A DNA stretch of 64,000 nucleotides, taken from positions 1,506-65,505 of the forward strand of contig JBJHCE010000003.1 of NCBI GenBank assembly GCA_050485865.1. The letters are read 5' to 3'. The stretch comes from Gemmatimonadales bacterium. GTDB taxonomy: Bacteria; Gemmatimonadota; Gemmatimonadetes; Longimicrobiales; Gaopeijiaceae. This document shows positions 15,653 through 34,623 of the stretch, piece by piece. Position numbers and translations under genes: made by a program. The notes beneath the pieces were generated by a model that saw nothing but the letters and a program-made list of their open reading frames with translations, was not told where the DNA came from and did no database searches. Each line of letters starts with the position of its first letter. Position 1 is the stretch's first letter.

Positions 15653-16800
15653 CCGGGCCTGTCCTCGCCCTCGCCCCGACCCTCGGCGGAATCCCGAACG
15701 CGGAACAGGCCGGACTCGAGGGTGAGCCCCGGACCGAAGGCCATGGCGAGAACGCGGTCCCCCGGGGCCGCCTCCCCCCTGAGGATCGCGTCGAGAACGA
15801 AGAGCACCGTCGCACTGCTCATGTTCCCGTAGCGTCGAAGCACCTCCCGGGACGCCGCCAGCGCCGCTCCGGAAAGGCCCATGGCCTCCTCCACCCGGTC
15901 CAGGATCGCCCGCCCCCCGGGGTGCACCGCCCACCACCGGACCTCGTCGGGCGCGAGCCTCTCGGGTGCAAGGACCCGCTCCACCAGCGGCCCCACGCCC
16001 CGGCCCACGAGCTCCGGCACGTAGCTTGACAGGCGCATGCGAAACCCCCGGTCCCCGATCGTCCAGGCCATGTCCCCCTCCCCCTCGGGCGCCAGGGTCC
16101 CCCGAAGCGCCTCGAGCTCGAGCACCGGGCCCGGGCCCCGGGGCGCCCGGGCACTCACCACCACACCCGCCCCACCGTCGGCGAAGATCGCCCCCGCCAC
16201 CAGGTCGTCCGTGTCCGCCGTGAACTGGAGGTGCAGGGTGCAGAGCTCCACCGAAAGCACGAGGACGACGGCCTCCGGGTCGGACCGGCAGAACGCCTGG
16301 GCCAGCCGGAGTCCCTGGAAGGCGGCATAGCACCCCATGAAGCCCACGTGCACCCGTACCGTGGAGCCCGGAAGACCCAGCGCGCGGACCACATCGTAGT
16401 CGGGCCCCGGCGCATAGAACCCGGTGCAGGACAACGTGATGACATGGGTGACCTCATCCGCCGCGAAAGACCCCTCCCCACCCACGAGCCCCTCCGCGAG
16501 CTTCACGAAGAGCTTCCGCGCCTCCCGGGCGTAGACGGCGTTTCGCGCCCCCGTTCCCGGGGTCGGGAGGCGACCGCCCTCCGCGTCGAAGAAGAGCCGG
16601 TCGCGCTCCCCTTCACCGAAGTCATCCACCACCGAATGCCGCCCCTCGATCCCCGAGTTCCGGTAGAGGCTCCGGATCATCCGCCGAACGGCCGGACGCC
16701 CCTCCACGTGCGCCTCCATCAGGGCGCCGGCCTCGTCCTGCGTGTACCGGGTCGGGGGTACGGCGGTGGCGAACCGATGGAGGAGGAGGGGGCGCGGCAT
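15649..16800 (-). CDS. Type III polyketide synthase (chalcone/stilbene synthase superfamily)
   Basis: The Cys-His-Asn triad contexts are present: ITLSCTGFYAPG, WAVHPGGRAILD and YGNMSSATVLF. Confidence 0.9.
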   Translation of the reverse strand: MPRPLLLHRFATAVPPTRYTQDEAGALMEAHVEGRPAVRRMIRSLYRNSGIEGRHSVVDDFGEGERDRLFFDAEGGRLPTPGTGARNAVYAREARKLFVKLAEGLVGGEGSFAADEVTHVITLSCTGFYAPGPDYDVVRALGLPGSTVRVHVGFMGCYAAFQGLRLAQAFCRSDPEAVVLVLSVELCTLHLQFTADTDDLVAGAIFADGGAGVVVSARAPRGPGPVLELEALRGTLAPEGEGDMAWTIGDRGFRMRLSSYVPELVGRGVGPLVERVLAPERLAPDEVRWWAVHPGGRAILDRVEEAMGLSGAALAASREVLRRYGNMSSATVLFVLDAILRGEAAPGDRVLAMAFGPGLTLESGLFRVRDSAEGRGEGEDRPG

Positions 16801-17238: not shown

Positions 17239-18195
17239 TCACCCGGTCTTGTCGAACGGGTCCGCCGCCAGCGCTTCCCTGAGCCGGGGGTGCCTTTTCC
17301 AGAGGTACCAACCCATCCCGACCACGGCGAGGAGGTTCCCCACCGCAATGGACCACCAGGCCAGGGGCCCGAGGAGGAACTCGGCGACCACGGCCAGGAT
17401 CGCGAGGAAGAAGGCCTCGAAGGCCACGAAGAGGAGGACCGCTCCCAGGAGGAGGGGCGGCGTCTTCTCCGACTGCCACACGATGGCCGAGGCAAGGATT
17501 CCCACCGCGAGAAACGCCCCCACGTGGAGGACCGTGTAGCCGAGGACCGTCCACGCCGTCACCTCCACGGCATCGACGCTCGACACGCCGAGAAAGACGG
17601 CGGAGCCGAGGGCCCCCGGGGTGAAGAAGAGCTCCCCCCGCACCGCGTCGAAGAGGAAGAACCAGAAGGCCACGATCCCGGCGCCCACGAGCCCGGCCGT
17701 GACCCCTTCCCGGACGATGCGGTGGTCGGCCATGGCCTCCCACCAGGTCACCGGCCGTGCCTCCCCCGTCAGGTGCAGGTACCCCATGAGCGATACGCCG
17801 GCAATGAGGTTCCCCGCCATGACCTCGAGCCACCCGAGCTCTGCCGCCACGTCCATGCCGGTGACGTAGACCGAGAGGTAGAAGACCGCATCGAAGAGGA
17901 TGAACCCGAGGACGAGGCCGATGAGCACCCCAGGCGCCACCTCGAGCTTCCGCACGAGCCACGTCGCCCCGACCCCAACCACGATCCAGGCCGCGTAGTG
18001 GACGAGGGTGTAGAAGCCGATGGGGATGGCCCCCCGGGCCAGGTCCTCCACCCCCAGGAGGGAGTGGGCCAGGAGGGCCGGGGTCCGGAAGGGCTCCCCC
18101 CGGGCCGCATCCACGAGGAGGAACCAGAGGGCCATGGCGGTGGCACCCACGGCCCCGGCCACTGCTCCACGCACCCACAGCTTCGATTCGTTCAT
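17239..18195 (-). CDS. Eight-TM membrane protein with internal 4+4 TM duplication (unknown family)
   Basis: The two halves align (WFLLVDAARGEPFRTPALLAHSLLGV versus WFFLFDAVRGELFFTPGALGSAVFLGV; YTLVHYAAW versus YTVLHVGAF). The start overlaps the upstream stop (ATGA at 18192-18195). Confidence 0.7.
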   Translation of the reverse strand: MNESKLWVRGAVAGAVGATAMALWFLLVDAARGEPFRTPALLAHSLLGVEDLARGAIPIGFYTLVHYAAWIVVGVGATWLVRKLEVAPGVLIGLVLGFILFDAVFYLSVYVTGMDVAAELGWLEVMAGNLIAGVSLMGYLHLTGEARPVTWWEAMADHRIVREGVTAGLVGAGIVAFWFFLFDAVRGELFFTPGALGSAVFLGVSSVDAVEVTAWTVLGYTVLHVGAFLAVGILASAIVWQSEKTPPLLLGAVLLFVAFEAFFLAILAVVAEFLLGPLAWWSIAVGNLLAVVGMGWYLWKRHPRLREALAADPFDKTG

Positions 18196-18392: not shown

Positions 18393-18713
18393 TCACCGGA
18401 ACTCCTGGATCACGACCAGGATCAGGATCGCGATCAGGGGAAGGGGGATCGCCGCGAGGATCCACACCCGTCGCTCCTCGAAGCGGAGGTGCATGTAGTA
18501 GAGGGCCACGAGAAGGGCGCTCACGAGGGAGATCGCGACGAGAAGGGTGATGGAAAGCCACTTGGGCATCCCGATGAGGGAGACCCCCACCTTCGCGAAC
18601 ATGAGGACGGCGAGGACCCCCCAGATCATCATGTAGGGTGGAGGGGCGTGCGCCGGGGCCGGGGGGGCTCCCCCCTCCCCTCCTCCCGTGGACGGTTCGG
18701 CGTGCTGCATCAC
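18393..18713 (-). CDS. ctaF: Cytochrome c oxidase subunit IV (prokaryotic COX4-type)
   Basis: About 100 aa with three hydrophobic helices. Its position directly after subunit III and the pattern Y..IW..L..LT..EV-like fit this family. Confidence 0.7.
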   Translation of the reverse strand: MMQHAEPSTGGGEGGAPPAPAHAPPPYMMIWGVLAVLMFAKVGVSLIGMPKWLSITLLVAISLVSALLVALYYMHLRFEERRVWILAAIPLPLIAILILVVIQEFR

Positions 18714-18720
18714 ATCCCCC

Positions 18721-19347
18721 CTAGATCAGGTAGACGATGGTGAAGAGGACGATCCAGACCAGGTCCACGAAGTGCCAGTAGAGACCCATGGCCTCGACGC
18801 CTCCAAGGCGTTTCGAGGTGAAGTCGCCGCGGCGGGCCCTCAGGTAGATCCATACGAGGCAGAGGACCCCGATGGATACGTGGAGCCCGTGGAACCCGGT
18901 CATCAGGTAGAAGGTCGAGCCGTAGAGGGGCCCACCCGCGGCGGCGAAGGCGGCGGCGTTCGGGACGAAGCCGTCGTGGACCAGGTGGATGTACTCGTAG
19001 ACCTGCACGCCCACGAAGAAGCTTCCCAGGAGGATCGTGGCGAGGAGCCACCGCTGGAGCCCCTTCTGGTCGTCGTGCTCGATGGCGGCGAAGGCCTTCA
19101 CCATCGTGACCGAGGAGCAGATCAGGATGAAGGTGTTGAAGGCGGTGAGGGGGACGTTCAGCACCTCGCCGGGGGCGGCGAAGTGGTCCGGGTGGGCAAA
19201 GCGCAGGATGATGTACGCCCCGATCAGCGAGGTGAAGAACATCACCTCCGAGAGGAGGAACACCCACATTCCGAGCTTCGCGTTGTACATGTCGAGGCCC
19301 CGTTCGGGGCGGCGGCCCCCGATCGGGAGGACGGCGGCGTGGCTCAT
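18721..19347 (-). CDS. ctaE: Cytochrome c oxidase subunit III
   Basis: LGMWVFLLSEVMFFTSLIGAY, YLMTGFHGLHVSIGV and YWHFVDLVWIVLF. ATG 19347 overlaps the CoxI stop (ATGA). Confidence 0.9.
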   Translation of the reverse strand: MSHAAVLPIGGRRPERGLDMYNAKLGMWVFLLSEVMFFTSLIGAYIILRFAHPDHFAAPGEVLNVPLTAFNTFILICSSVTMVKAFAAIEHDDQKGLQRWLLATILLGSFFVGVQVYEYIHLVHDGFVPNAAAFAAAGGPLYGSTFYLMTGFHGLHVSIGVLCLVWIYLRARRGDFTSKRLGGVEAMGLYWHFVDLVWIVLFTIVYLI

Positions 19348-21179
19348 GGCGCACCTCCGGGGGCTCCGGCGGGGGCCGGTTCGGGTGGGGGCGGGGGTGG
19401 GCCGCCCGATGCGGGTCCCGGCGGGCCCTCGCGGACGGCCTCCGGGGGCTCGTCCTGGGGGAAGAAGTCCAGGGCGCGGCCGGGCACGCTGTACTCGTAC
19501 GGCCCGCGGTGGACGAGGGGCCAGGTGGGGAAGTTTCCGTGCGGCGGAGGCGAGGGCACCGTCCACTCCAGGGAGTTCGCCCGCCAGGGGTTCGCCTCGG
19601 CCTTCTTCCCCCACCACATCGACAGGAGGAAGTTCGCCGCGAAGATGAGCTGCACGGCGAAGAGGGCGAAGACCGCGTTCGAAATGAAGACGTTCGTTCC
19701 CTGCAGGGGAGCGAGGAAGTCGTACTGGGTCGTGTCGTAGAGGCGGCGCATCATCCCCTGGAGCCCGAGCGAGTGCATCGGGAAGAACACCAGGTTGTAG
19801 AGGACGAAGGTGGCGAAGAAATGCACGTATCCCCAGGTCCGGTTCATCATCCGCCCGAACATCTTCGGGTACCAGTAGATGATCCCGGCGAAGATCGCGA
19901 AGAGGCTCCCGCCGAAAAGGACGTAGTGGATGTGCGCGACGATGAAGTACGTGTCGTGGATGTGGATGTCCACGGGGCTCGACGCCATGAAAATCCCCGA
20001 GAGTCCCCCGATGATGAAGAGGGACACGAAGGCCGCCGCGTGGAGGAAGGGGACGTGGAAATGGATGCTCCCCTTCCAGAGGGTGCCGAGCCAGTTGAAC
20101 ACCTTGATCGCCGAGGGGACCGCGATCACGAGCGTCGTCACCATGAAGGTGGTGCCGAGCATCGGGTTCATCCCGCTCATGAACATGTGGTGTCCCCACA
20201 CGATCCAGCCGAGGAAGGCAATGGCGATGATCGCGAGCACCATGGCGTGGTAGCCGAAGATCGGCTTCCGGGCACCGTTTGCGAGGACCTCCGAGACGAT
20301 CCCGAAGGCCGGGAGGATCAGGATGTAGACCTCCGGGTGGCCGAAGAACCAGAAGAGGTGCTGCCAGAGCAGGGGCTCACCCCCGTGCTCCGGAAGGAAG
20401 AAGGTGGTCCCGAGGGTCTGGTCCGTGAGGAGCATGATGAGCGCCCCCGCCAGGATGGGCATGGCGAGGAGCGCCAGAATCGCGGTGACGAAGAGGGCCC
20501 AGACGGTGAGAGGGAGCCGGAACCAGGTCATTCCCGGGGCACGCATGCTCACGACCGTGGTGATGTAGTTCACCGCTCCCGTGATCGAGCTGAAGCCCAG
20601 GATGAAGAGGGACAGGAGCCAGAGCTGCTGCCCAAGGTAGACCCCGGTGTACTCCCCCGATGCCGAGAGGGGGGCGTAGGCGGTCCATCCGGCACCCGCC
20701 GCTCCGCCCTCCACCAGGAAGCTCGCGAGCATGATGAATCCTGCCGGTACCGCAAGCCAGAACGAGAGCGCGTTCAGCTTCGGGAAGGCCATGTCCGGCG
20801 CCCCGATCTGGAGCGGGATCAGGAGGTTCCCGAAGACCCCCACCAGGAGGGGCATGATCGCGAAGAAGATCATGAAGGTCCCGTGCATGGTCACGAGACT
20901 GTTGTAGAACTCGGGGAGGATGATGCCGCCGGGCGCCATCGTGTCGGGGAGCCCGCCTCCTCCCGGAAGCGGCTGTCCGGGAAAGGCCAGCTGCCACCGC
21001 ATGATCACCGCCAGGAGCCCGCCCAGGAGGAGGAATACGAGGCTCATGACCAGGAACTGCTTCGCGATCATCTTGTGATCGGTGGAGAAGATGTAGGTCC
21101 GGATGAAGCCCGGCTCGTGGTGCCCTTCTCCGGCGAACCCCCCGATGTACCAGTCGGAGGCGGGTTTCGTGGCGCTCAT
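19344..21179 (-). CDS. ctaD: Cytochrome c oxidase subunit I (A-family haem-copper oxidase)
   Basis: STDHKMIAKQF, WFFGHPEVYILILPAFG (CuB His/Tyr region), GHHMF, and HDTYFIVAHIHYVLFGG (haem a/a3 His). It has a proline-rich C-terminal tail. ATG 21179 overlaps the CoxII stop. Confidence 0.95.
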   Translation of the reverse strand: MSATKPASDWYIGGFAGEGHHEPGFIRTYIFSTDHKMIAKQFLVMSLVFLLLGGLLAVIMRWQLAFPGQPLPGGGGLPDTMAPGGIILPEFYNSLVTMHGTFMIFFAIMPLLVGVFGNLLIPLQIGAPDMAFPKLNALSFWLAVPAGFIMLASFLVEGGAAGAGWTAYAPLSASGEYTGVYLGQQLWLLSLFILGFSSITGAVNYITTVVSMRAPGMTWFRLPLTVWALFVTAILALLAMPILAGALIMLLTDQTLGTTFFLPEHGGEPLLWQHLFWFFGHPEVYILILPAFGIVSEVLANGARKPIFGYHAMVLAIIAIAFLGWIVWGHHMFMSGMNPMLGTTFMVTTLVIAVPSAIKVFNWLGTLWKGSIHFHVPFLHAAAFVSLFIIGGLSGIFMASSPVDIHIHDTYFIVAHIHYVLFGGSLFAIFAGIIYWYPKMFGRMMNRTWGYVHFFATFVLYNLVFFPMHSLGLQGMMRRLYDTTQYDFLAPLQGTNVFISNAVFALFAVQLIFAANFLLSMWWGKKAEANPWRANSLEWTVPSPPPHGNFPTWPLVHRGPYEYSVPGRALDFFPQDEPPEAVREGPPGPASGGPPPPPPEPAPAGAPGGAP

Positions 21180-21913
21180 CGGCCTTCCTCGGCGTCGGGT
21201 TCGGGTGCGGGTTCGGAAGGCGCCTGGGCGCGCTGCCCACGGGCCTCCTCGCGGGCTGCGATCCGCTCCGCCTCCCATGCGGCGAAGTCGGCCTCGGACA
21301 GGGCGATCACCCGGCCGTCCATCCGGAAGTGTCCGACCCCGCAGAGTTCGGCGCACCCGAGGGAGTAGTCGCCCGCTTCGGTGACCTCGAACCAGATCGG
21401 GATCGTCATTCCGGGGACCGCGTCCTGTTTCACCCGGAAGGCGGGAACGAAGAAGGAGTGGATCACGTCGGCCGCGGTGAGGTGCACGACGACGGGGCGG
21501 TTCACCGGCACGTGGACCCGGTTCAGGAGGGTGAAGTCGGCATCGGTCCCGAACACCCCGTCACCTCCGGCGTAGCGCGCCTCCCATTCGAACTGCCGGG
21601 CCTCCACGTGGATCTCGTAGGCCCCGTCGGGAAAGCGGGCCGGGTCCTTCACCTCGTCCCAGACGCTCTTGCTCATGAGGCCGAGGGCCACGACGATCAC
21701 GAAGGGAACCGCGGTCCAGGCGATCTCGGCCTTCGTGCTCCCGTGGATGTAGGCCGCCGGCACCCCCTCGCGTCTCCTGTAGCGGAAGAGGAACCAGAAG
21801 AGGAGAAACTGGGTCAGGAGGAACACGACCCCGGTGATCACGAGGATCAGGTAGTACAGCCGGTCGATGTCGGCGGCGTAGGTGGTCACCGCCGTGGGAA
21901 GGGTCCAGTCCAT
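21176..21913 (-). CDS. ctaC: Cytochrome c oxidase subunit II (CuA; no fused cytochrome c domain)
   Basis: Two N-terminal TM helices. CuA ligands are in DVIHSFFVPAFRVKQD and CAELCGVGHFRM. There is no CxxCH anywhere in the protein. Confidence 0.9.
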   Translation of the reverse strand: MDWTLPTAVTTYAADIDRLYYLILVITGVVFLLTQFLLFWFLFRYRRREGVPAAYIHGSTKAEIAWTAVPFVIVVALGLMSKSVWDEVKDPARFPDGAYEIHVEARQFEWEARYAGGDGVFGTDADFTLLNRVHVPVNRPVVVHLTAADVIHSFFVPAFRVKQDAVPGMTIPIWFEVTEAGDYSLGCAELCGVGHFRMDGRVIALSEADFAAWEAERIAAREEARGQRAQAPSEPAPEPDAEEGR

Positions 21914-21917: not shown

Positions 21918-22691
21918 TTACGCTCCGGCCCGGAAGGTGAAGGAAACCGAGGCCGTCTCGCCGGTGGTCACCGTGACCCGGGCTTCCTGCGTGCCCAGGT
22001 CCGGGTGCCAGGCTTCGAGGAGGTACTCTCCGGGGGGGAGCCGGGCCAGGTTGAAGGTTCCCGCCTCTCCGGTCACCGCGTGGTAGGGGTGGGGGAGGAT
22101 GCCCAGGTAGGCGCCCATCCACCCGTGAACGTCGCAGCGCAGCGGGATCATCACCTCCGGGAGGGGGAAGGTCCGATCCGTGTCCATGTTGACCGGCTGG
22201 CTCACGTTGAAGCCCCGGTTCGTGCTCGGCGTGGCGTTGATGTTGTGCATGAGTCCGTCGGAGTTCCGGAGCGTCACCGTCTGGTTCGTCATCGCTCCCG
22301 CTACCCGTGGGACGTACCGGCACGCCACCTGGTCGATGAGGACGGCCTCGGCGGGGACGGGGAATTCCATTCCCTCGAGCCCCTCCTTCACGTAGACGAA
22401 GACGTCGGCCAGGTGACCGCCACGGACCTTCACGTTCTCCCGGACGGGGGGTTCGTCGTAGCGCTCGAAGCAGGCGCGCTCGCTCTCCATGTCGATGGGC
22501 TCGGGCGCAGGCGGAGTCCCCTCGAACATGACCATGCCGGAGACCGAACCGGCGGTGGCCACGTCGAAGGGCATCTCGGTGACCTGCCGGGCTGCGGGCG
22601 CGGCGTCGTCCCCGCCTCCGCAGGCGGCGACTCCGAGGGCCAGGGCGAGGGCGGCGAAGGGGAGCGTGCAGCGGTGGGTCAGGGTGTTCAT
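21918..22691 (-). CDS. Cupredoxin-like lipoprotein with C-terminal carboxypeptidase-regulatory-like beta-sandwich
   Basis: Lipobox LALGVAAC. A type-1 copper-like ligand set is present: H in DGLMHNINA plus C-x2-H-x2-M in RCDVHGWM. The C-terminal GTFNLARLPPGEYLLEAW is CarboxypepD_reg-like. Confidence 0.6.
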   Translation of the reverse strand: MNTLTHRCTLPFAALALALGVAACGGGDDAAPAARQVTEMPFDVATAGSVSGMVMFEGTPPAPEPIDMESERACFERYDEPPVRENVKVRGGHLADVFVYVKEGLEGMEFPVPAEAVLIDQVACRYVPRVAGAMTNQTVTLRNSDGLMHNINATPSTNRGFNVSQPVNMDTDRTFPLPEVMIPLRCDVHGWMGAYLGILPHPYHAVTGEAGTFNLARLPPGEYLLEAWHPDLGTQEARVTVTTGETASVSFTFRAGA

Positions 22692-24313
22692 GGGTCCTCC
22701 GGGGTCGGAGTTGGGGTGATGCGTTCACGTCGCTGGGCCCGGGCCACCACGAGGAGGCCGAGCCCGCCGGTGAGAACCATCGCGAGGAGGGGAGCCACGA
22801 AGACCGTGGGCGGGGTCTCGGGCTCCAGGTGGATGAAGAACCAGGAGCTGATGGAGCCCCGGGTCCCGTCCTCCCCGTTGTCACCGTCCCAGGCCTGGAA
22901 GGCGATGGGGATCGAGACCCCCTCCACGAAGGTGAGATCGGCGTCGGGATCCGCGGGCTCGAGGGGGCGACGAAGGAGGAGCTCCCATCGGCCGTCATCC
23001 CAGCGGGCCTCGGCAGAGATCCCGGCGCCGGGAATGTCCTGGACGTCGCGGACCCCCCGGGCCCGGGCCCGGACGGCGGTCCCGGGGCGATCGCTGGACC
23101 ACTGCCAGAGGAGGACCGGACTGCGGGCATCGCCCTTCAGGAAGTACGGCCGGTCCATACCCCGGGGGAGTTCAAGGGGGAGCTGAACGGTGATCCGGTC
23201 CGGCCGGGGGCCGGGCTCCGGGGGTTCGCCGTCGTGGGGCTCCATGACCTCGAGGACCCGGGCCTGGAAGTCTGCCCAGAGCGGGTCCGGGCTCCGGGAC
23301 CGATCGTGCCAGGCCAGGTGGAGAACGAGCTCGGCCCCGTCGTGGAAACCCCGGACCTCCACCGCGTTGATCGAGGGATCGAACCAGCGGGGCGCCACGA
23401 TGATCTGGGCCACGAGGGGAATGTGGAACGCCTCGGCCTCGCCCCATCGCGGATCGTCGAGCCCGGTGGGGAGAGTTCCGCCGTCGAGGCGGGGAATCCG
23501 GATCACCTCCCGGATCCGGGGCTCCCGCTCCGGCGAGAGGCTCCGGACGTAGTGGGCAAGGCTCCAGAGTTCGTCGGCGGTGACCACCCCCGCGTCCACG
23601 AGATCGGCGGACGAGGGCATCGGGGTCCCGTCGAGCCCGGTGAGGATCCGCCGGTGGATGTCCTCCACCGAACCCCCTCCGTCGAACCTCCAGTTCCTGG
23701 TGAGGTCAGCGGCGCGAATCGGATAACCCCAGTCATCTTCCAGGGTGGGCGCACTCGACCCGGCACCCCGCCCGGAGTCACCGTGGCACTGCCAGCACTC
23801 GATTCGCTGGAAGACCTCCCGACCCTCGGCGATCCGCTCGGCACTCGCCCTGGGCGCCCGACCGAAGGGGAGGGGGTCGGGCTGCCCGAAGGTCTCGAAC
23901 CCCGGGTAGAAGGTCTTCAGGTACGCCACGAGGGCGTCCCGGTCCCGGCGGGAGAGGTGACGCTCCCACCCGGGCATGGAGGTCCCGGGCATCCCCTTGT
24001 CGATGACGCGCAGGATGTCTGCGTCGGTGGGAAGCTCCCCCCCGGCGGTGGTCCGGACCTGGTAGACCCCCCGGGTGAAGTCCCTCGGGCGGGGAAGCAT
24101 GGTGCCCGCAGCCGGGCCCAGACCGTCGCCCTCGGCCCCGTGGCACGAGGCACACCATCGGTCGTAGAGCTCCCGCCCCCGGTCCAGGTCCTGGGCCTCG
24201 GCCCCTCCCGCCCCGGCGGCGGCCGCGGCCAGGAACCCCGCGCAGGCCAGGCGGCGGCCGGCGGCCGCAGGGATCCGCCACCTGGAAATGGACCCGCCCC
24301 TCCGCATCTCCAT
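22688..24313 (-). CDS. Di-haem cytochrome c fused to an EB_dh-type (ethylbenzene dehydrogenase gamma-like) haem-b domain, C-terminal TM anchor
   Basis: Two CxxCH motifs (CASCH, CWQCH). The distal domain has LHLAWHD...VQLP...GM..PYF...LWQW...W.LLLRRPL...IAFQAWDGDNGE..G..SISSW. TM VFVAPLLAMVLTGGLGLLVVA. The ATG shares one nucleotide with the upstream stop (TGATG at 24311-24315). Confidence 0.7.
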   Translation of the reverse strand: MEMRRGGSISRWRIPAAAGRRLACAGFLAAAAAGAGGAEAQDLDRGRELYDRWCASCHGAEGDGLGPAAGTMLPRPRDFTRGVYQVRTTAGGELPTDADILRVIDKGMPGTSMPGWERHLSRRDRDALVAYLKTFYPGFETFGQPDPLPFGRAPRASAERIAEGREVFQRIECWQCHGDSGRGAGSSAPTLEDDWGYPIRAADLTRNWRFDGGGSVEDIHRRILTGLDGTPMPSSADLVDAGVVTADELWSLAHYVRSLSPEREPRIREVIRIPRLDGGTLPTGLDDPRWGEAEAFHIPLVAQIIVAPRWFDPSINAVEVRGFHDGAELVLHLAWHDRSRSPDPLWADFQARVLEVMEPHDGEPPEPGPRPDRITVQLPLELPRGMDRPYFLKGDARSPVLLWQWSSDRPGTAVRARARGVRDVQDIPGAGISAEARWDDGRWELLLRRPLEPADPDADLTFVEGVSIPIAFQAWDGDNGEDGTRGSISSWFFIHLEPETPPTVFVAPLLAMVLTGGLGLLVVARAQRRERITPTPTPEDP

Positions 24314-25113
24314 CAGTGCTCCTCCCAGGTACGGGGCGAGAGCCCTGCCTGGCGGTAGAGGAAGAGGGTCACCGCCCAGATCTCGTCGGCGGTCATGAAG
24401 TCCTCCCAGGCGGGCATGGCCGAGTTCCAGGGGGCACCCTCCCGGGGAAGGCCGGCCCCTCCCTTCGCGATCCGCCAGAAGACGTAACTCTCGGTGAGCT
24501 GGGCGATCGTTCCTCCGCCGCGGAGGGGGAGGGGCGCGGGGTTGAAGCCGTGGGCGTAGTGACCCTGCCCGTCCAGGTAGTCGCCGTGGCAGGGCATGCA
24601 GTTCCGCGTGTAGAGGGCGAGCCCCTCGGCGTAGGCCTCGTCCTCCCGCCCCGAGCCGCGTATGGGGTTCTCGAGCCCGTCCAGGCGGATCGTCTCGCCG
24701 CGGAAGGTGATCTGGGTGGGAGGCGCGGGGTGGACGGACCTGAGCCCCGCGGGGGCCGAGACCTTGGGGCGGACCGTGTCGTAGGTCATGAAGCCCACGA
24801 GGAGGGGGAGGGCCACCAGGACCGCGAGGCGCACCCGACGCCGCTCCGGAAGGATCAGGGTCTCCCGGATGGGGCGCTTGAAGGCCTTCCACCGGTCCTC
24901 GTTGTCACTCACCCAGACGAGCACCCCGAGGAGGACGGAAAGCATGTACTGGATCACCACGCTCCGGGGGACCGGTGCGCTCGAAACCCCGACGAGGGGG
25001 GGGAGGTACGGGATCCCCCAGCGGACCAGGGCGTAGGCGAGGAGAAGGACCGCTGCGCCCTGGGCGAAGGGGGTCCGGGGCCAGAGGCGGAAGCGCCGCG
25101 CCGGGGCGTTCAC
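24313..25113 (-). CDS. Membrane-anchored mono-haem cytochrome c (three N-terminal TM helices)
   Basis: Single CMPCH, with the distal Met candidate in NSAMPAW. The GTG start overlaps the upstream stop (GTGA at 25110-25113). Confidence 0.8.
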   Translation of the reverse strand: MNAPARRFRLWPRTPFAQGAAVLLLAYALVRWGIPYLPPLVGVSSAPVPRSVVIQYMLSVLLGVLVWVSDNEDRWKAFKRPIRETLILPERRRVRLAVLVALPLLVGFMTYDTVRPKVSAPAGLRSVHPAPPTQITFRGETIRLDGLENPIRGSGREDEAYAEGLALYTRNCMPCHGDYLDGQGHYAHGFNPAPLPLRGGGTIAQLTESYVFWRIAKGGAGLPREGAPWNSAMPAWEDFMTADEIWAVTLFLYRQAGLSPRTWEEH

Positions 25114-25907
25114 CGGAGCCCCGCCAGGTAGCGCACCACGGCCTCGAGCTGGGCCGCGGTGAGGCGCTCACCGAAGTAGGTGGGCATCACCCCCACGAGC
25201 TCCTCGTACCCCGGGGACACCACGGCCGGGGGGTCGAGGATCGCGCGGCGGAGTTCCTCGGGGGTGCGGCGGGCCCCGATCCCGTCCAGGGCCGGGCCGA
25301 GCGCGGTCCCCTCCCCTGCCAGCACGTGGCACATCACGCACTGCTCCCGTACGAAGGTCTCCGGGTCGTCGGCGCCGGCGATGCCGACGGCTCCGGGCGC
25401 TCCGGCGGCGGGGACGCCGGGGCTCGCATCGGTGTCGGGAATGTCCGCTGCCGTCACGGTGATCTCCCCCCCGAGGCTTTCCAGGTAGGCCACGAGGGCC
25501 CAGATCTGCGCCGGGGCCATGGTCCGGTCGGCAGGGGGCATGATCGGCTCGTACCCCGGGACCATGTGCTCCTGCGGGCGCACAAGCGCCTGGTAGAGGA
25601 ACTCCTTGCACGACATTCCCGGGACCCGGTCGCCGCAGCGGGCCCCGATGGGTCCCTCCCCACGGAAGTCGGTGGAGAGGTTCGGCCCCCGGGCTCCGGG
25701 CGACTCGGCGTGGCAGGCCAGGCATCCGCCGCCCCCCCGGTAGAGGGCGGCCCCGGCTTCGGCCAGCTCCTCCGGGGTCACGTCGGCGCCGAAGGCCACG
25801 TCCAGGGGCACCTCCGACTCCACCTGCGGGATCACGTTCGCCACCAGGGTGAAGAGGATGATGGTCCCGGCCACGACCCCCGCCACCTTGAAATCCACCG
25901 CCGACAT
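25110..25907 (-). CDS. Membrane-anchored di-haem cytochrome c
   Basis: N-terminal TM VAGVVAGTIILFTLVANVI. Two CxxCH motifs (CLACH, CVMCH). The ATG abuts the stop of the CydA-like gene (TGA|ATG). Confidence 0.85.
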   Translation of the reverse strand: MSAVDFKVAGVVAGTIILFTLVANVIPQVESEVPLDVAFGADVTPEELAEAGAALYRGGGGCLACHAESPGARGPNLSTDFRGEGPIGARCGDRVPGMSCKEFLYQALVRPQEHMVPGYEPIMPPADRTMAPAQIWALVAYLESLGGEITVTAADIPDTDASPGVPAAGAPGAVGIAGADDPETFVREQCVMCHVLAGEGTALGPALDGIGARRTPEELRRAILDPPAVVSPGYEELVGVMPTYFGERLTAAQLEAVVRYLAGLR

Positions 25908-27716
25908 TCAGGCCTCCCGGGGGTTCGGATGGAGGGGCGCGGTCGAGGGGGCCGCCGCGGGCTGGGGCTTCACGATCATCCCCCCGATCCAGAAGACGAA
26001 GGAGATCATTCCGAGGAAGATCAGGACGCAGGCGCTGATCACGATGGCCGCGTATCCGAGCGCCGGGGTCGCCGCGTGGGGCGAGGTGTCGCGCATCACC
26101 TCCCAGATGTGCCAGTGCTGGCGAATCCCGCTTCGGGCGAACCCCATGAGCCCCATGAGCCAGGTGAAGGTCACGACCAGCACGAAGAGGGCGTACTGGG
26201 CGCGCTCGGGCATCTCTCCCCAGCGGATCGCCCCCCGGGATTCGGCCTTCCGGGTCAGGAGGAGGTCCAGGACGACCACGGCCACGATGGAGCCCAGCAC
26301 CCAGAGCACCTGGTAGACCGAGAATCCGATCCGGACAATGGCCTCGACGAAGTAGCCGTAGACCCCGTAGAAGAGGACGACGGCAGCACAGATCGCGAGC
26401 ACGATCCCCTGGGCGATCGTCCCCTCCCGGGCCCACGACACGGTGGGAATCTTGTTCGCCCGGCGGTACATCAGGAAGGACAGGAAGGTGGTGAGGATCA
26501 TGAGGTTCACCGCCGTGTTCTTGGCACTCATGACCCCGAGCACCCCCAGGAAGGGGTGGTGCGTCCCCCCCATGGCGGCGAGCTCCTCCCGGTCCGCGAT
26601 CATGGAGTGGGGGGTGGCCCACACGATGAAGCCCACCACGAGGACGGCGAGCATGTACTTCGTGTACGGAGCGAACCGCTCTCCTCCGGGGATGCGACCG
26701 AGGCCGATCCAGAGGTAGTAGTTGCCCGCGAGGAAGAGGATCCCGATCAGGAAGGCCTGCACGATCCAGAGCCAGCTCATGAAGCCGCCCATCATCGTGA
26801 CGCCCATCTGCTGGTTGTACTCGTAGATCTCCCGCCCCAGCCAGTAGCCCGCGAAGGGGAGCACGAGGAAGACCGCGATGGCGATGAGGTTCCCCACGTA
26901 CGCCATCCAGTCGTAGTGGGCGCGCTCCTCCGGGGTCTTCGCCTTGAGGAATCGGTACGCCGCGTAGGCCGCCACCACCGCCCCACCGAACACGGCGTTC
27001 GCGATGAGCCGGTGGATGTTGATGGGCATCCAGGTGGCGTTCGCGAAGGCGCTCCAGAAGAGCACCTCCCGGGGGGAGGTGTCGGGGGTCACGTACCCCG
27101 GGGGGCTCATCATGTAGGTGAGCCAGGAGTTCGCGATGAACATCACGATCGTGCCCCAGATGTTCAGGAGGATCCCGAGCCCCCAGTGTCCGATCTTGGC
27201 CCGACCGGCCTTCCACCGGTCCCACGTGTAGTAGTAGGTGTAGAGGGTGGCCGTCTCGAAGAAGAAGAGACCGGCGTAGAAGTACATGGAGTAGCCGAAG
27301 ATCTCGGCCAGGTATCCCCAGAGCGTGGGGTAGAGGGTCACGAGGAGGAAGAGGAGGAGCCCGCCCCAGAGGGCCGTGGCGCTGTAGGCCACGAGGAGGA
27401 GGCGGGTGAATTCCCGGGCGAGCCGGTCGTACTTCTCGTCCTTCCCCCAGATCGCGATCGCCTCGGCGATCACCGCGAACATCGGCACCCCGAGCACGAA
27501 GGCGGCGAACATGAGGTGCACCTGCGCCGCCACCCACACGGCGATCCGGCTCCCCACCAGGGGAAAGTCCCGCCCGTACTCCGCCACCCGGTACTGGTAC
27601 TGGAAGCCCTGGGCGGCGAGGGGCTCGGCAAGGATCACCACGAGGGCCACCCCGGCGGCGAGGGCCGCGAGCGCCCACGCGATCCGGGCCTTCCCGCCCT
27701 GGCTCCGGCCCGTCAT
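25908..27716 (-). CDS. CydA-like protein (cytochrome bd subunit I superfamily), extended to about 13-14 hydrophobic segments, no CydB partner
   Basis: Aligns to the E. coli CydA N-terminal half: AAQVHLMF (His19 context), FFFETATL (FFLESTF), TWDRW (GWDR), IGHWGL (His126 context), ANSWLTYMMSP (ANGWMQNP) and NIHRLIANAVFGG (His186 context). ATG 27716 overlaps the radical-SAM stop. Confidence 0.8.
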   Translation of the reverse strand: MTGRSQGGKARIAWALAALAAGVALVVILAEPLAAQGFQYQYRVAEYGRDFPLVGSRIAVWVAAQVHLMFAAFVLGVPMFAVIAEAIAIWGKDEKYDRLAREFTRLLLVAYSATALWGGLLLFLLVTLYPTLWGYLAEIFGYSMYFYAGLFFFETATLYTYYYTWDRWKAGRAKIGHWGLGILLNIWGTIVMFIANSWLTYMMSPPGYVTPDTSPREVLFWSAFANATWMPINIHRLIANAVFGGAVVAAYAAYRFLKAKTPEERAHYDWMAYVGNLIAIAVFLVLPFAGYWLGREIYEYNQQMGVTMMGGFMSWLWIVQAFLIGILFLAGNYYLWIGLGRIPGGERFAPYTKYMLAVLVVGFIVWATPHSMIADREELAAMGGTHHPFLGVLGVMSAKNTAVNLMILTTFLSFLMYRRANKIPTVSWAREGTIAQGIVLAICAAVVLFYGVYGYFVEAIVRIGFSVYQVLWVLGSIVAVVVLDLLLTRKAESRGAIRWGEMPERAQYALFVLVVTFTWLMGLMGFARSGIRQHWHIWEVMRDTSPHAATPALGYAAIVISACVLIFLGMISFVFWIGGMIVKPQPAAAPSTAPLHPNPREA

Positions 27717-29053
27717 GCCTTCCCTCCCCGCCCGAGGAAGAAGGGGAGCCGCTTCGAGAAGTCCACCGGCATCTCCTCCCGGACCCGGGCCATCAGCGCC
27801 TCGTCCACGACCGCCACCCCCCGGTCCCGGGCAAAGCGCTCCACCCGGTCCACCACCACCCCCCGGACGAAGCTCGGAATCCGCTCCACCCGGGCCCGGG
27901 CGCCTTCGGTCCAGGGGAGTGCCGGCTCGGGGATCGAGGCCCCGTAGGTGACCGACGCGCGCGGGCGGACAAGGGGCTCGTCCCCGTCCGGCTCGTACGC
28001 GCACGAGAGGTCCGGCCCGAGGAGGTCGCCGGTCTCGGCAAAGGCCCGGGCGCGACACCCCCCGCACACCTCCCGGTACGCGCACCGCCCGCACTTTCCG
28101 CCGGGCGTTCCTTCACGAAGGGCCTGGAACACCGCGGAAGTGCGCCAGATCTCGCCGAAGGAGGCCTCCGCCAGGTCCCCCGCCTCCACCGGGGAGTAGG
28201 GACAGGGCGTCACCTTCCCCTCGGGAGTGATGCGGCAGTACTGGAGCCCGCAGGGACACCGGGTCCGGTAGTTCAGGAGGGGGGAGTCCGGCTCCCCGGC
28301 GTGGGCGAGGCGCATGAGCTGCGGCTGGCACTTCGAGCGAACCAGCATCCGGCCCCGGAAGCGGGCCTCGAGGGCCAGGAGCTCCTCCAGGACCTCCTCG
28401 TTCTCCGCGGGGGAGAGCCCCTGCATCCCCGACCCCCGCCCGGTGGGAACGAGGAAATAGAGGTTGAAGGCCACGGCACCCATTTCGGCGGCCCAGGCCA
28501 CGAGTCCCGGGAGCTCGTCCCGGTTTCCCCGGGTGAGGCTCGTCTGCACGATGAAGTCGAGGCCGTGGCGCCCGAGTCGCTCCACCGCGGCAAGGGTATC
28601 GGAGAGGGCGCCCGAGCCGTGGCGAAAGCGGTCGTGGTACGCGGGGCGGAGCGAGTCCACGCTCACCGCCACGCCCTGCACCCCCGCTTCCATGAGCGAC
28701 CGGATCCGGGTGTCCGTGAGACGCGTTCCGTTCGTACCCACCACCACCGTGGCGCCCCCTTCCGTGGCCCGGGAGGCGAGAAGCTCCAGGTCGTCGCGAA
28801 GGAGGGGCTCCCCGCCGGAGAGGATCAGCATCGGCGCGGGGCTCACCTCCAGGATCTCTCCGAGGATGCGGAGGCATCGGTCCGTCGGGAGCTCGTCGGC
28901 CGCGGCGTGCCAGGACCCGGCCGCGATGTAGCAGTGGGCGCACGCCAGGTTGCAACGCTTCGTCAGGTTCCAGGCCACCACGTGGGGAACGGGCGGGGCA
29001 GGCTCCGACACCGGCGTGGACGGCGCTTCGTCGAGCGCCCGGGCGAGGCTCAC
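27713..29053 (-). CDS. Radical SAM/SPASM enzyme of the NirJ/AhbC/AhbD (tetrapyrrole side-chain) type with a C-terminal PCP_red-like domain
   Basis: CNLACAHCY (CxxxCxxC), SGGEPLL, NLYFLVPTGRG, and a Cys-rich tail CPCGLQYC...PCPY...GKCGRCAYREVCGGCRARA. The C terminus is LPWTEGARARVERIPSFVRGVVVDRVERFARDRG. The GTG start overlaps the upstream stop (GTGA at 29050-29053). Confidence 0.8.
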   Translation of the reverse strand: MSLARALDEAPSTPVSEPAPPVPHVVAWNLTKRCNLACAHCYIAAGSWHAAADELPTDRCLRILGEILEVSPAPMLILSGGEPLLRDDLELLASRATEGGATVVVGTNGTRLTDTRIRSLMEAGVQGVAVSVDSLRPAYHDRFRHGSGALSDTLAAVERLGRHGLDFIVQTSLTRGNRDELPGLVAWAAEMGAVAFNLYFLVPTGRGSGMQGLSPAENEEVLEELLALEARFRGRMLVRSKCQPQLMRLAHAGEPDSPLLNYRTRCPCGLQYCRITPEGKVTPCPYSPVEAGDLAEASFGEIWRTSAVFQALREGTPGGKCGRCAYREVCGGCRARAFAETGDLLGPDLSCAYEPDGDEPLVRPRASVTYGASIPEPALPWTEGARARVERIPSFVRGVVVDRVERFARDRGVAVVDEALMARVREEMPVDFSKRLPFFLGRGGKA

Positions 29054-31035
29054 GCCTCCTCCTCCATGAATCGTTCCACCGCCGCCCTTGCCTCGGCGGG
29101 TGTCGCCGTCTTCATGTCCACCGGGCACTTCTCGACCTGGGCCTCGACATCGCGGATCGGACACCGGGTGACCCCCTGGGCCTTCGCCTCCTCGATGAAT
29201 TTCCTCATCTCGGGCGAGAGCCCGTCCACCCCCTCGGCCGCGGCCTTGAGCTGCTTCGTCTGGAGCTCGCGGAACATGACGAGCATGGTGTCCATGTCGA
29301 ACTCGTCGGCCTCGATCATGGCCTGCTTGTTCTCGTCCATGACCCGGGTCGTGACCCGCCAGAGGTCGTGTTCCTTCGCGAAGCGCTCCACGGTGTTGCG
29401 GGCCAGGGGGCGCGCGATCAGGGGCACGGCCCGAAGGCGTTCGAAGGCTTCCGCGGTCCAGACCACCGGGTCGGTGGCGGTACGCTCCCGGGACTGGCTA
29501 TGCCCCGTGTAGGGGCACGCCACGGTCACCGTGGGGACCTCGGGCTCGGGGTCCGCGTCCACCCCTTCCACCACGGTCCGCCGCATCGCCTCCTCCGCCT
29601 TCACCTCGGCCAGGGCAAGCTCTTCGGCGGTCCCGATCCCCATGATCATCTGCATGTGGGTGGGAAGGAGCTTCCGGATCGCCTCGTCGAGGCGGTCGCC
29701 GGTCACGGTGGGAAGCGCATGTCCCCCGTTCCCGTACTCCTCGAGGACGAACTCCTCCACCGCCTTCCGGGCGATCCCCAGGGCGAAGGGCGGCACCCGG
29801 AGGATCCGCACCTCGGCGTCGGGGGCCCACTCGAGCCCCTGTTCCCCGTCTTCCTCGATCCAGGGGATCTCGTCGGGGCGGACGTCGGTGGTCCCCACGA
29901 GGAGCACGTTCGCAGGCGTGAGGCGGCAGAGGTTCTCGGCCTGGGAACCCAGATCGGTGCCGTCGATCCGGTGCCCCCCGTGCCGCGCCATCACGACGAG
30001 CGAGGGGTCGAGCTCCTCCACCCACTGGAGGATGCACTGGAAGGGCTTCCCGATCAGGATCTGGGTCTCCACCTCCACGTCGGGGAACTCGGAGGCCATG
30101 ACCTGCGCCCGCTTGAGGTTCGCCTGGCAGAGCTTCAGGAGCCCCTTGTCGATGATGTTGTTGTGAAGGGCTTCCTGCTCCTCGAACTTGAAGACCTTCG
30201 CGGCCTGCGCCGAGAGCACGTCCTTGATGTTGCCGAAGACGACGTGGTGATACTCCACGTCGAAGGCGGAGCAGACGTGGAGCTTCGCCCCGAACTCCCG
30301 GGCGAGTTCGAGGGCCACCCGCATCGCCTTGTACGCGTAGGAGGAGCCGTCCACGCATACGATCCAGGATCCGCCCTCGAGCGGTCGGTCGTTCCGGACG
30401 ATCAGGGTGTCCCGTTCGACCTTCCGGATGACCCGGGCGGTGACGCCCCCGAGCTGTGAGAGGGGCTGGAGGCCGATTCCGTGGGCGCCGATGCAGAGGA
30501 GGTCGTATTCACGACCGCTCTCGCCCGCGAGCTTCTCGTCCTGCTCCTCGTCCTCGGCCACGATCCGTCCGTCCGCCCCGAGGCGAACGTCGCTCCGGAC
30601 CGTCGTACCCCCGTCGTACTTGTCGGCGATGTTGGGATCGAAGCCGATGAGACTGGGAAGGCGCCCCGCTCCCCGGTTCGCCTCACGGATGATCTCCTCG
30701 TAGTTGATTCCCTCGAGGAGCTGCCGTGCAAGGGGGACTCCGGCCTCCCGGCACCGCCGTTCCGTCTGGTCCAGGAAGGAGTCCGAGATGAGCTGGAGCC
30801 CCTTCTCGATCAGCTTGTCGTGGACCTTCCGCTGCCGCCGGATCTCTTCCGGGGTCTGGAACTGTGCAGGGAGACCGGTTTCGAGCTGCCGGAACCGGAC
30901 GTCGTGAAGCCGGGCGGCGTAGACGTGGTTTCCGGTGATCCGGCCGTCGGACCTGCGGCAGAGCTCCACCGCACGGTTCACGGCCCAGCTGGAATGGTCG
31001 GAGTTGTCGACCGGAACGAGGACTTCGCGGTACAT
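29050..31035 (-). CDS. Tandem universal-stress-protein (USP) domains fused to two PCP_red-like domains
   Basis: USP-1 is MYREVLVPVDNSDHS...LLCIGAHG...VIRKVERDTLIV. USP-2 is WIVCVDGSSYAYKA...VVMARHGGH...GSQAENLCRLTPANVLLV. These are followed by EWAPDAEVRILRVPPFALGIARKAVEEFVLEE and VVWTAEAFERLRAVPLIARPLARNTVERFAKEHD. A GAGG Shine-Dalgarno precedes ATG 31035. Confidence 0.8.
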   Translation of the reverse strand: MYREVLVPVDNSDHSSWAVNRAVELCRRSDGRITGNHVYAARLHDVRFRQLETGLPAQFQTPEEIRRQRKVHDKLIEKGLQLISDSFLDQTERRCREAGVPLARQLLEGINYEEIIREANRGAGRLPSLIGFDPNIADKYDGGTTVRSDVRLGADGRIVAEDEEQDEKLAGESGREYDLLCIGAHGIGLQPLSQLGGVTARVIRKVERDTLIVRNDRPLEGGSWIVCVDGSSYAYKAMRVALELAREFGAKLHVCSAFDVEYHHVVFGNIKDVLSAQAAKVFKFEEQEALHNNIIDKGLLKLCQANLKRAQVMASEFPDVEVETQILIGKPFQCILQWVEELDPSLVVMARHGGHRIDGTDLGSQAENLCRLTPANVLLVGTTDVRPDEIPWIEEDGEQGLEWAPDAEVRILRVPPFALGIARKAVEEFVLEEYGNGGHALPTVTGDRLDEAIRKLLPTHMQMIMGIGTAEELALAEVKAEEAMRRTVVEGVDADPEPEVPTVTVACPYTGHSQSRERTATDPVVWTAEAFERLRAVPLIARPLARNTVERFAKEHDLWRVTTRVMDENKQAMIEADEFDMDTMLVMFRELQTKQLKAAAEGVDGLSPEMRKFIEEAKAQGVTRCPIRDVEAQVEKCPVDMKTATPAEARAAVERFMEEEA

Positions 31036-31418
31036 CGGCACCTCGGGCCTTGAGCCTGAGCACCCCCGCAACCGGCCCCAGGGCGGGCAGGGGCCCAGGA
31101 TCTGGGCCATACCCGTCCTCAGGAGCCCCGGGACAAGCCCGGGGACCCACGCTCCGCCCTCGGCGGAGCACGGACGCTGCGACCGGCACGAAGGGGACGG
31201 GACGTTCCCGCCCACTCACGCTCAAACCGGGCATCCACGCGTTGTGCTCGCTTCTGCCCGACGACCGCCTCCCTCCGGGAGGGGGCGGACCGTGACCGAG
31301 GTTTGCTGTTGTCGCTTCGGGAGGGGGCCCTGTCTGCAGGTCGTGCGAGGCACATCGTGCCGGGACCCGCGGGCTGCACCCGTCCCCGGGGACCGTCCCC
31401 GGGGTGTGCGACGACGCC

Positions 31419-33230: not shown

Positions 33231-33677
33231 CTACATGCCTTCCAGGCCCAGGTCGGTCCGGGCCCGATCCATGACCTCCGGCGAGATCGTCCCGATCCCA
33301 TGCTCCCGGGCGTAGTCGGTGTAGATCCGCTTCACCATTCCGCGAACGAACCCCGGCACCCCCTGGAGGCGGAGCACCGCCTCCTCCGTCCAGATCACCG
33401 GGATCGGCGTCGTCGGAGCCGACGTGTCGACGAAGGCATCACTCCGCCCGCCATCGAGGGAGCCGCGCACCGTTTCGAAGGGCTGGGCAGGGACCTCCCT
33501 CCCGCCGACCTTCACCCCCATGGTGCTCACGAGCTGGGTCTCCATCGGGTTCGTGAGCAGCGCCATTTCCCTTGCACACCCGGGGCACCGGAAGAGGGTG
33601 GCCATCGTCCCGTCGCCGGGGAGGCGCCGCTCGGCGTAGGCCATGACCTGGTCGCAGGGGATGCAGAGGAATTTCAT
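33231..33677 (-). CDS. Zn-ribbon + PCP_red-like domain protein
   Basis: N-terminal CIPC...CPGC ribbon. The C-terminal domain is VIWTEEAVLRLQGVPGFVRGMVKRIYTDYAREHG. The ATG overlaps the Mrp stop (ATGA at 33674-33677). Confidence 0.7.
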   Translation of the reverse strand: MKFLCIPCDQVMAYAERRLPGDGTMATLFRCPGCAREMALLTNPMETQLVSTMGVKVGGREVPAQPFETVRGSLDGGRSDAFVDTSAPTTPIPVIWTEEAVLRLQGVPGFVRGMVKRIYTDYAREHGIGTISPEVMDRARTDLGLEGM

Positions 33678-34609: not shown

Positions 34610-34623
34610 CCGGAACCCCCGGG

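Follow-up and report, generated by a model that had tools for sequence, protein, structure and literature searches.

A cytochrome bd-like module of OR-N2 type joined to an aa3-type oxidase operon in Gemmatimonadota, a possible substitute for complex III

The role of the so-called bd-like oxidases has been debated for over a decade, since the first Nitrospira genome. In the nitrite oxidoreductase (nxr) regions of Nitrospira, Nitrospina and the anammox bacterium Kuenenia, a 14-helix bd-like protein is encoded together with a monohaem cytochrome c, a dihaem cytochrome c, an alternative NxrC of about 60 kDa and cupredoxin-like proteins (Lücker 2010, 2013; Mundinger 2019). Cluster TO_1 of Ca. Manganitrophus has the same composition and is the most highly expressed terminal-oxidase cluster of that organism. 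For this type of cluster the idea of an 'alternative complex III' has already been voiced (Lücker 2010, 2013; Mundinger 2019), and reverse electron transport has been proposed for the module in nitrite-oxidising bacteria (NOB) and anammox bacteria, where it is located in nxr clusters. Within the cytochrome bd superfamily, the OR-N2 operon context consists of multiple cytochromes c and an ebdC homologue, and the OR-N family has been recorded in Gemmatimonadota (Murali, Gennis & Hemp 2021, bioRxiv 10.1101/2021.01.16.426971). Although bd-like genes rank near the top in expression in nitrite and manganese oxidisers, no bd-like/OR-N2 member has been purified to date, and the group is known from genomes. 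The DNA analysed here (the window) is a stretch of 64,000 nucleotides from contig JBJHCE010000003.1 of a Gemmatimonadales bacterium (assembly GCA_050485865.1); it carries a CydA-like gene, three genes for c-type cytochromes and one for a putative copper lipoprotein, followed by coxBACD, in a single run (Table 1). A preliminary description of this DNA held that the arrangement was not known from characterised systems; its core cluster, however, has already been described from genomes as the OR-N2 operon type, though it is biochemically uncharacterised.

From the Usp gene through coxIV, eleven genes follow one another with overlaps of 1–4 nucleotides, abutting ends or gaps of 4–10 nucleotides. 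The stop codon of the radical S-adenosylmethionine (SAM) gene overlaps the start of the CydA-like gene (ATGA), and the monohaem c gene has a GTG start overlapping the stop of the gene upstream. A scan of one genome per species retrieved 334 relatives of the protein combining haem c with an EB_dh domain, all from metagenome-assembled genomes (MAGs). Synteny was counted in the best 80 of these 334, at loci with enough flank; the loci were found by two peptide patterns and are biased to close relatives. They are MAGs of Gemmatimonadota, chiefly Longimicrobiales, although a few bear the label Gammaproteobacteria. Gene order and strand are identical in every Gemmatimonadota locus with enough flank. 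Upstream of the EB_dh gene, the monohaem c is found in 76/76, the dihaem c in 68/68, the CydA-like gene in 60/60, the radical SAM gene in 57/57 and the Usp-PCP_red gene in 55/55 loci; downstream, the lipoprotein is found in 76/76, CoxII in 72/73, CoxI in 64/64 and CoxIII in 61/61, and all eleven genes are held by 49 of the 80 loci. The CydA-like and cox genes thus belong with the cytochromes to one conserved unit in relatives, and chance adjacency of the cytochrome and cox genes is ruled out across these loci. Tight translational coupling together with invariant synteny argues for one functional unit, and both the identity of its parts and their functional linkage can be held with considerable confidence.

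The wider family of the dihaem c and EB_dh fusion comprises 963 matches at E≤1e-30 in an exhaustive search of cluster representatives, and in five contexts of relatives at 38–41% identity the four-gene core stands without cox genes. The proposal that cox adjacency is universal for the bd-like module is consequently rejected, and the coxBACD fusion is a Gemmatimonadota trait among the loci seen. Radical SAM and/or Usp/PCP_red genes adjoin four of the five cox-less contexts, and one context has a fragment of a lipoprotein homologue; radical SAM homologues occur in distant loci L081, L082 and L083 (40–44% identity), and the Usp/PCP_red gene also adjoins the distant modules in L083 and L084. It follows that the radical SAM and PCP_red genes travel with the bd-like module beyond Gemmatimonadota. 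Since the four-gene core is found elsewhere without cox genes, the cytochromes are best seen as subunits of the bd-like complex rather than as a free-standing wire. Of the dedicated electron path between the CydA-like protein and the oxidase that was proposed initially, the conserved unit and a plausible relay are retained, but not the free-standing wire. Two of the related loci show further arrangements. In L029 (854-3234), a second, diverged pair of monohaem c and haem-c/EB_dh genes (42% and 39% identity) immediately precedes the Usp gene of the main cluster on its upstream side, which implies a paralogous second module. In the distant L083 (1-2311; 43% identity in the EB_dh protein), a Rieske_3/molybdopterin enzyme with an arsenite-oxidase-like domain set is encoded upstream of the Usp/radical SAM/bd-like module, with a HEAT-repeat protein between them.

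The CydA-like protein contains about 13–14 hydrophobic segments and aligns with Geobacillus CydA (PDB 5doq_A; E=7e-11) over residues 52–259, which cover the first four, haem-binding helices. It keeps the equivalents of His19 (H67), Glu107 (E154), His126 (H177) and His186 (H235), while Tyr stands for Glu99 (Y147) and Ser for Glu445 (S529), with a Trp six residues later (W535). This signature is invariant in 24 sequences, three of which are only 48–51% identical, and matches the OR-N2 row in Table S6 of Murali et al. (bioRxiv 10.1101/2021.01.16.426971). The operon context, with several cytochromes c, an ebdC homologue and no second cydA, fits OR-N2 as well, and by residue signature and context the protein is assigned to this subfamily of the cytochrome bd superfamily. 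With homologues that are 72–92% identical, it is the most conserved protein of the operon. The replacement of the Glu99 and Glu445 equivalents by Tyr and Ser argues against canonical bd-type O2 chemistry. No Q-loop or quinol site is seen in the CydA-like protein, and the loops after H235 have at most about 30 residues (the Lys252 and Glu257 equivalents not being individually aligned).

The three consecutive membrane-anchored cytochromes with two, one and two CxxCH motifs were recognised correctly in the preliminary description, as motifs, Pfam cytochrome c domains and hydropathy agree. The dihaem c contains CLACH at residue 62 and CVMCH at residue 190 and one N-terminal transmembrane helix, the monohaem c has CMPCH at residue 172 and two to three transmembrane helices, and the EB_dh protein has a signal peptide, CASCH at residue 54, CWQCH at residue 173 and a C-terminal transmembrane helix at residues 504–522 (helices predicted by simple hydropathy). 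The motif numbers are kept in 70/70 orthologues of the dihaem c (two), 77/77 of the monohaem c (one) and 80/80 of the EB_dh protein (two). Together with the putative copper site described below, a count of five c-type haems plus one copper is supported. The N-terminal dihaem domain of the EB_dh protein (residues 38–262) shares 42% identity with Kustc0457 (PDB 6h5l_B; profile E=2.6e-66), the dihaem partner of an octahaem enzyme resembling hydroxylamine oxidoreductase (HAO) in Kuenenia, and this is the solved structure closest to any of the three cytochromes or the lipoprotein.

An alignment of 32 homologues of the lipoprotein shows no variation at the lipobox Cys24 or at His149, Cys186, His189 and Met192, and the C..H..M set is kept in 26/26 high-scoring segment pairs of orthologues at ≥85% coverage. 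The spacing C-x2-H-x2-M is that of the amicyanin loop. The AlphaFold model of the lipoprotein (predicted local distance difference test, pLDDT, 88; predicted template modelling score, pTM, 0.81) places the cupredoxin domain in a CarboxypepD_reg-like beta-sandwich, and the best Foldseek matches in the PDB are amicyanin, pseudoazurin and plastocyanin (probability 1.00, target TM-scores 0.57–0.73). Pfam and NCBIfam scans of the lipoprotein gave a C-terminal CarboxypepD_reg-like domain and no cupredoxin match, and a PDB sequence search gave nothing; the cupredoxin assignment made initially on the H...C-x2-H-x2-M ligand set is thus borne out by ligand invariance and predicted fold, but not by the domain scan. 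Because the fold and the invariant ligand set agree where the sequence libraries are silent, the assignment as a putative type-1 copper cupredoxin stands. Most homologues carry a C-terminal extension with a D-P-H-x-H motif and further histidines (alignment columns 290–356), which the window protein does not have, and the invariant Cys74 and Cys124 may form a disulphide.

The oxidase genes encode CoxI, a CoxII with the CuA motif, CoxIII and CoxIV with no fused cytochrome c, a set that is characteristic of an A-family oxidase, and coxBACD is predicted to encode an ordinary aa3-type cytochrome c oxidase, the haem type being a prediction. The absence of CxxCH from CoxII, which had been pointed out before, is confirmed in the window and in 72/72 orthologues, all of which also have the CuA motif. 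Having CuA but no cytochrome c of its own, CoxII requires an external donor, for which the membrane-tethered putative type-1 copper protein, whose gene immediately precedes coxB, is the natural candidate. At the downstream ends of L008, L048, L051, L055 and L058, a second, divergent coxIII-coxI(-coxII) set with about 30–47% identity lies a few kb away in the opposite orientation, some carriers thus having two A-type oxidases side by side.

Taken together, these parts suggest that the products would assemble into one respiratory unit or supercomplex, in which the c-type cytochromes and the cupredoxin may be periplasm-facing electron-transfer subunits of an OR-N2-type bd-like complex, and electrons may be exchanged among the bd-like protein's b-type haems, the five c haems, the type-1 copper and the CuA of the aa3 oxidase. 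In the most likely direction, menaquinol would be oxidised at the bd-like subunit and electrons would flow through the haems c and the cupredoxin to CuA and O2, the bd-like complex thereby acting as a quinol-side donor that substitutes for complex III; a relay from haem c through type-1 copper to CuA is plausible, with AcoP as a precedent. A cofactor of the bd-like subunit would probably be a tetrapyrrole tailored or delivered by the AhbD/NirJ-like enzyme and the PCP_red proteins. The role as quinol-side donor is favoured by the loss of Glu99 and Glu445, by the oddity of two oxidases in one coupled operon and by the scarcity of petB and alternative complex III (ACIII) genes in a survey of 326 Gemmatimonadota genomes, which found petB in 23%, ACIII in less than 10% and a caa3-type oxidase in 74% of the genomes (PMC9426454). 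In the same survey, cydA was present in 173 genomes and cydB in only 95, and its authors suspected the existence of complex III modules not yet known (PMC9426454). We infer complex formation, the direction of flow and quinol use, and for the whole reading, in which a bd-like substitute for complex III feeds the aa3 oxidase, a probability of about 0.5 seems appropriate. The far-reaching version, in which the OR-N2 module is the long-missing quinol:cytochrome c/cupredoxin oxidoreductase, a third CydA-based 'complex III' in obligate supercomplex with aa3 through five c haems and a blue copper lipoprotein, with a cofactor tailored by its own radical SAM and PCP_red proteins, is rather unlikely.

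Several observations speak against the proposed supply of aa3 by the bd-like complex. The genomes that have cydA only show no enrichment in petB loss: of 16 such genomes in the alphabetically first part of the lists in the supplement of PMC9426454, 13 lack petB, compared with 77% overall. No Q-loop or known quinol-binding residues are recognisable in the CydA-like protein, so quinol would have to be oxidised at a new site; the equivalent of His19, a ligand of the O2-reducing haem, is kept, and others read the family as an oxygen reductase. The core module without cox genes in other lineages also makes the cox link lineage-specific. A rival reading has two terminal oxidases in the operon. In it, the bd-like protein would reduce O2 with electrons from cytochrome c, a function already put forward for its counterparts in Nitrospira and Ca. 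Manganitrophus, and the cytochromes and the cupredoxin would form a shared manifold with two outlets, the bd-like site and aa3, fed by an unrelated donor (bc1, ACIII or a periplasmic dehydrogenase). In its favour, the equivalents of His19 and His186 and the channel residues Glu107 and His126 are conserved, no quinol site has been recognised, the literature reads the family as an oxygen reductase, and TO_1, with the same composition, is the top-expressed terminal-oxidase cluster of Ca. Manganitrophus. Yet Glu99 and Glu445 are replaced, the coupled co-transcription of oxidases with presumably different O2 affinity in hundreds of species would be unusual, and the source of electrons is left unexplained in genomes mostly without petB and ACIII, which makes this explanation rather unlikely.

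The module might alternatively be a hub for a periplasmic substrate, with the alternative-NxrC-like EB_dh subunit docking an unlinked periplasmic dehydrogenase whose electrons would divide between a 'downhill' branch through the cupredoxin to aa3 and an 'uphill' branch in which the bd-like protein passes them to the quinone pool, much as in the branched iron-oxidation chain of A. ferrooxidans and as has been suggested for the module of nitrite oxidisers. Such a hub is in line with the occurrence of the module in the nxr clusters of NOB and anammox bacteria, for which reverse electron transport is proposed, with the Rieske_3/molybdopterin enzyme two genes upstream of the Usp gene in L083 and with the similarity of the dihaem domain to the partner of an HAO-like enzyme. 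It is nevertheless improbable, as no candidate dehydrogenase is found in the 64 kb window or among the twelve cluster genes searched in the 80 loci, EbdC and NXR-C take up electrons from the Fe-S subunit at haem-b ligands that the window protein lacks, and the carriers are widespread, presumably heterotrophic Longimicrobiales of many habitats. The cupredoxin lipoprotein could finally be a copper chaperone or assembly factor for CuA, the cytochromes then serving the bd-like complex only and the cox adjacency being organisational. The position of its gene directly before coxB and the His-rich C-terminal tails of many homologues, a metal-handling trait, agree with such a function, but the window protein has no His tail, its full His/Cys/His/Met type-1 set with the amicyanin loop is invariant, its fold matches electron-transfer cupredoxins, and the known CuA chaperones PCuAC and Sco differ in fold and motifs from a type-1 cupredoxin set; a chaperone is accordingly very improbable.

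The preliminary description had also ascribed a haem-b fold of the EB_dh type to the third cytochrome, of which the fold is supported and the haem b is not. Pfam EB_dh scores 58.9 bits against a cut-off of 33.3, and TIGR03477 matches with E=2.6e-22. A profile of 17 homologues retrieves, besides 6h5l_B, EbdC (2ivf_C; 9e-15) and Kuenenia NXR-C (7b04_C; 1.7e-14) from the PDB, and the same three structures are the top Foldseek matches of the protein model, followed by haem-free CBM9 modules (target TM-scores 0.73 for EbdC and 0.58 for NXR-C, with a low-confidence model of mean pLDDT 61). The axial ligands of the EbdC haem b, Met108 and Lys201, correspond to Met155 and Lys305 in Kuenenia NXR-C, ligated 'as in EBDH', and the residue numbers in the printed alignments reproduce the ligand positions of both proteins exactly. 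In sequence and profile alignments to 2ivf_C and 7b04_C, the Met108 column is occupied by Lys393 and the Lys201 column by Gly486 in the window protein. Among 119 homologues of the Gemmatimonadota clade, the first column holds M in 66, R in 22, Q in 11 and K in 8, and the second holds G in 99, A in 9, S in 7, R in 4 and never Lys; across the wider fusion family, just 16 of 150 diverse representatives retain the Met/Lys pair. Haem b with canonical Met/Lys ligation in the EB_dh domain is ruled out, both axial ligands being replaced, and haem b in this domain is unproven, as the fold also has cofactor-free members. His324 (invariant) and Met357 (108/119) could be alternative haem ligands in the clade, and the ligand loops of the AlphaFold model (pLDDT <50) are too weak for a search for alternative ligands.

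The window has a G+C content of 72%, which explains the crowded raw lists of open reading frames, and codon-position G+C singles out one unambiguous set of minus-strand genes, those of the operon having coding-type G+C at the third codon position of 0.88–0.96. An alternative start of the Usp-PCP_red gene is possible at 31035. In Pfam scans of the called genes across the 64 kb window, no molybdopterin, NarH-type Fe-S, bc1 or ACIII genes were found, in agreement with the initial statement that molybdopterin and Fe-S subunits are absent here; the only Fe-S-related genes are those of the SPASM radical SAM enzyme and of an NUBPL-type P-loop nucleoside triphosphatase (NTPase). The seven-transmembrane protein downstream of coxIV occupies the same position in most related loci (49–78% identity).

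Table 1. Features of the operon and its flanks in the window, with positions and supporting matches
Feature	Position	Strand	Basis
ABC-2 transporter pair, ParA/NUBPL-type Fe-S P-loop NTPase and HmuY-like haem-binding protein, just upstream	31480-33230, 33674-34690 and 35033-35698	-, - and + (in the order of the positions)	
PCP_red protein standing alone, 148 aa	33231-33677	-	
Usp (universal stress) + PCP_red protein, conserved accessory gene	29050-31215	-	Pfam Usp E=1.3e-32, PCP_red E=2.2e-13
Radical SAM/SPASM enzyme with C-terminal PCP_red	27713-29053	-	Pfam Radical_SAM, SPASM, PCP_red
CydA-like 'cytochrome bd-like' membrane protein	25908-27716	-	Pfam Cyt_bd_oxida_I PF01654 E=7e-23
Dihaem c, CLACH + CVMCH	25110-25907	-	Motifs, Pfam cytochrome c, hydropathy
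Polytopic monohaem c, CMPCH	24313-25113	-	Motif, Pfam cytochrome c, hydropathy
Dihaem c + EB_dh/DOMON fold + C-terminal transmembrane helix ('alternative NxrC-like')	22688-24313	-	Pfam EB_dh E=1e-15
Lipoprotein with putative amicyanin-type type-1 copper cupredoxin domain	21918-22691	-	Ligand set and predicted fold
CoxII with CuA site	21176-21913	-	Pfam COX2 and COX2_TM; TIGR02866 CoxB E=1.1e-48, above cut-off
CoxI, haem-copper oxidase catalytic subunit	19344-21179	-	Pfam COX1 E=7.9e-150
CoxIII, short form, 208 aa	18721-19347	-	Pfam COX3 E=4.7e-28
Prokaryotic CoxIV	18393-18713	-	Pfam COX4_pro E=2.5e-10
Seven-transmembrane protein	17239-18195	-	No match in Pfam or NCBIfam; located 197 nt downstream of coxIV
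DpgA-like type III polyketide synthase, overlapping SAM methyltransferase and nearby FAD/BBE oxidase, downstream of the operon	11037-12401, 14915-15652 and 15649-16800	-	Polyketide synthase E=7e-40

The gene list of the preliminary description omitted the conserved radical SAM and PCP_red genes upstream of the CydA-like gene. The radical SAM enzyme scores about 274 bits against each of TIGR04055 (NirJ2) and TIGR04545 (AhbD), in both cases below the cut-off of 500, and is classified as '-like' with respect to the AhbD/NirJ group of tetrapyrrole-modifying enzymes. Three PCP_red proteins are encoded upstream of the bd-like gene. PCP_red (PF08369) is the C-terminal domain of the protochlorophyllide reductase BchB; here it is attached to the AhbD/NirJ2-like radical SAM/SPASM enzyme and to Usp domains, and the third copy stands alone. 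Together, the PCP_red and radical SAM genes suggest a dedicated system for tetrapyrrole tailoring or delivery for bd-like complexes. A literature search linking 'bd-like' with 'radical SAM' found no paper. The small PCP_red gene stands among the ABC-2 transporter, NUBPL-type and HmuY-like genes, which may belong to the same neighbourhood for cofactor handling. Sets of type III polyketide synthase, methyltransferase and oxidase, such as the one encoded downstream of the operon, make phenolic lipids or polyketide quinones; synteny of the synthase with the operon does not extend to the 80 related loci.

In the Gemmatimonadota version, the module is separated from nitrite oxidation and tied to a conventional CuA oxidase, which narrows the possible roles of the bd-like proteins and makes them testable. 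The arrangement may explain how aa3 is fed without a standard complex III: if the bd-like module does supply aa3, the use of cytochrome c oxidase would be explained in a cosmopolitan phylum mostly without bc1 and ACIII, and if it does not, the operon would be an unusual case of two oxidases on one haem/copper manifold. Conservation of the radical SAM and PCP_red genes points in addition to an unrecognised cofactor-maturation step for the bd-like family.

In the literature searched, no description was found of strict operonic joining to an A-family oxidase in a phylum of non-nitrifiers, of the missing Met/Lys pair or of the conserved AhbD/NirJ-like and PCP_red accessory genes, and these features appear to be new. 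With OR-N2, the window module shares about 14 transmembrane helices, the lack of a quinol site, the residue signature and the combination of cytochromes c with an ebdC homologue, while an adjacent haem-copper oxidase, a cupredoxin and radical SAM/PCP_red genes are not mentioned in the accessible part of that paper (bioRxiv 10.1101/2021.01.16.426971). The cluster of NOB, anammox bacteria and Ca. Manganitrophus has the same parts list but is tied to nitrite oxidoreductase genes or chemolithotrophy, and Nitrospira has no canonical haem-copper oxidases; the window module, in contrast, has no nxrA or nxrB within 64 kb, is strictly fused in one operon with coxBACD and has lost the Met/Lys ligands. 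The gamma subunits EbdC and NXR-C of type II enzymes of the dimethyl sulphoxide (DMSO) reductase family have the beta-sandwich fold in common with the EB_dh domain of the window. They bind haem b through Met/Lys and are seated on an Fe-S beta subunit, whereas the window protein has Gly for the Lys and a variable Met column; its EB_dh domain shares one chain with a dihaem c and a membrane anchor, and the alpha and beta subunits that go with gamma subunits of the EbdC, NXR-C, SerC and ClrC type are not encoded anywhere in the 64 kb.

ACIII of Chloroflexus, Rhodothermus and Flavobacterium is a non-bc1 quinol-oxidising complex with several c haems, often encoded beside and supercomplexed with an A-family oxidase, and in Chloroflexus its acceptor is a membrane-tethered blue copper protein (auracyanin). 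The NrfD/PsrC-like and Fe-S (ActB) subunits that form the basis of ACIII are absent from the window, where the membrane core is instead a CydA homologue; ActE-type monohaem subunits are among the weak PDB matches. In A. ferrooxidans (Acidithiobacillus ferrooxidans), the membrane-bound dihaem cytochrome c4 (Cyc1) reduces the membrane-anchored cupredoxin AcoP, which co-purifies with aa3, and all are encoded in one operon. That system, which works in the acidophilic oxidation of Fe(II), includes neither a bd-like protein nor an EB_dh subunit, but its logic of dihaem c to cupredoxin to aa3, with AcoP likened by description to the lipoprotein, resembles that of the window.

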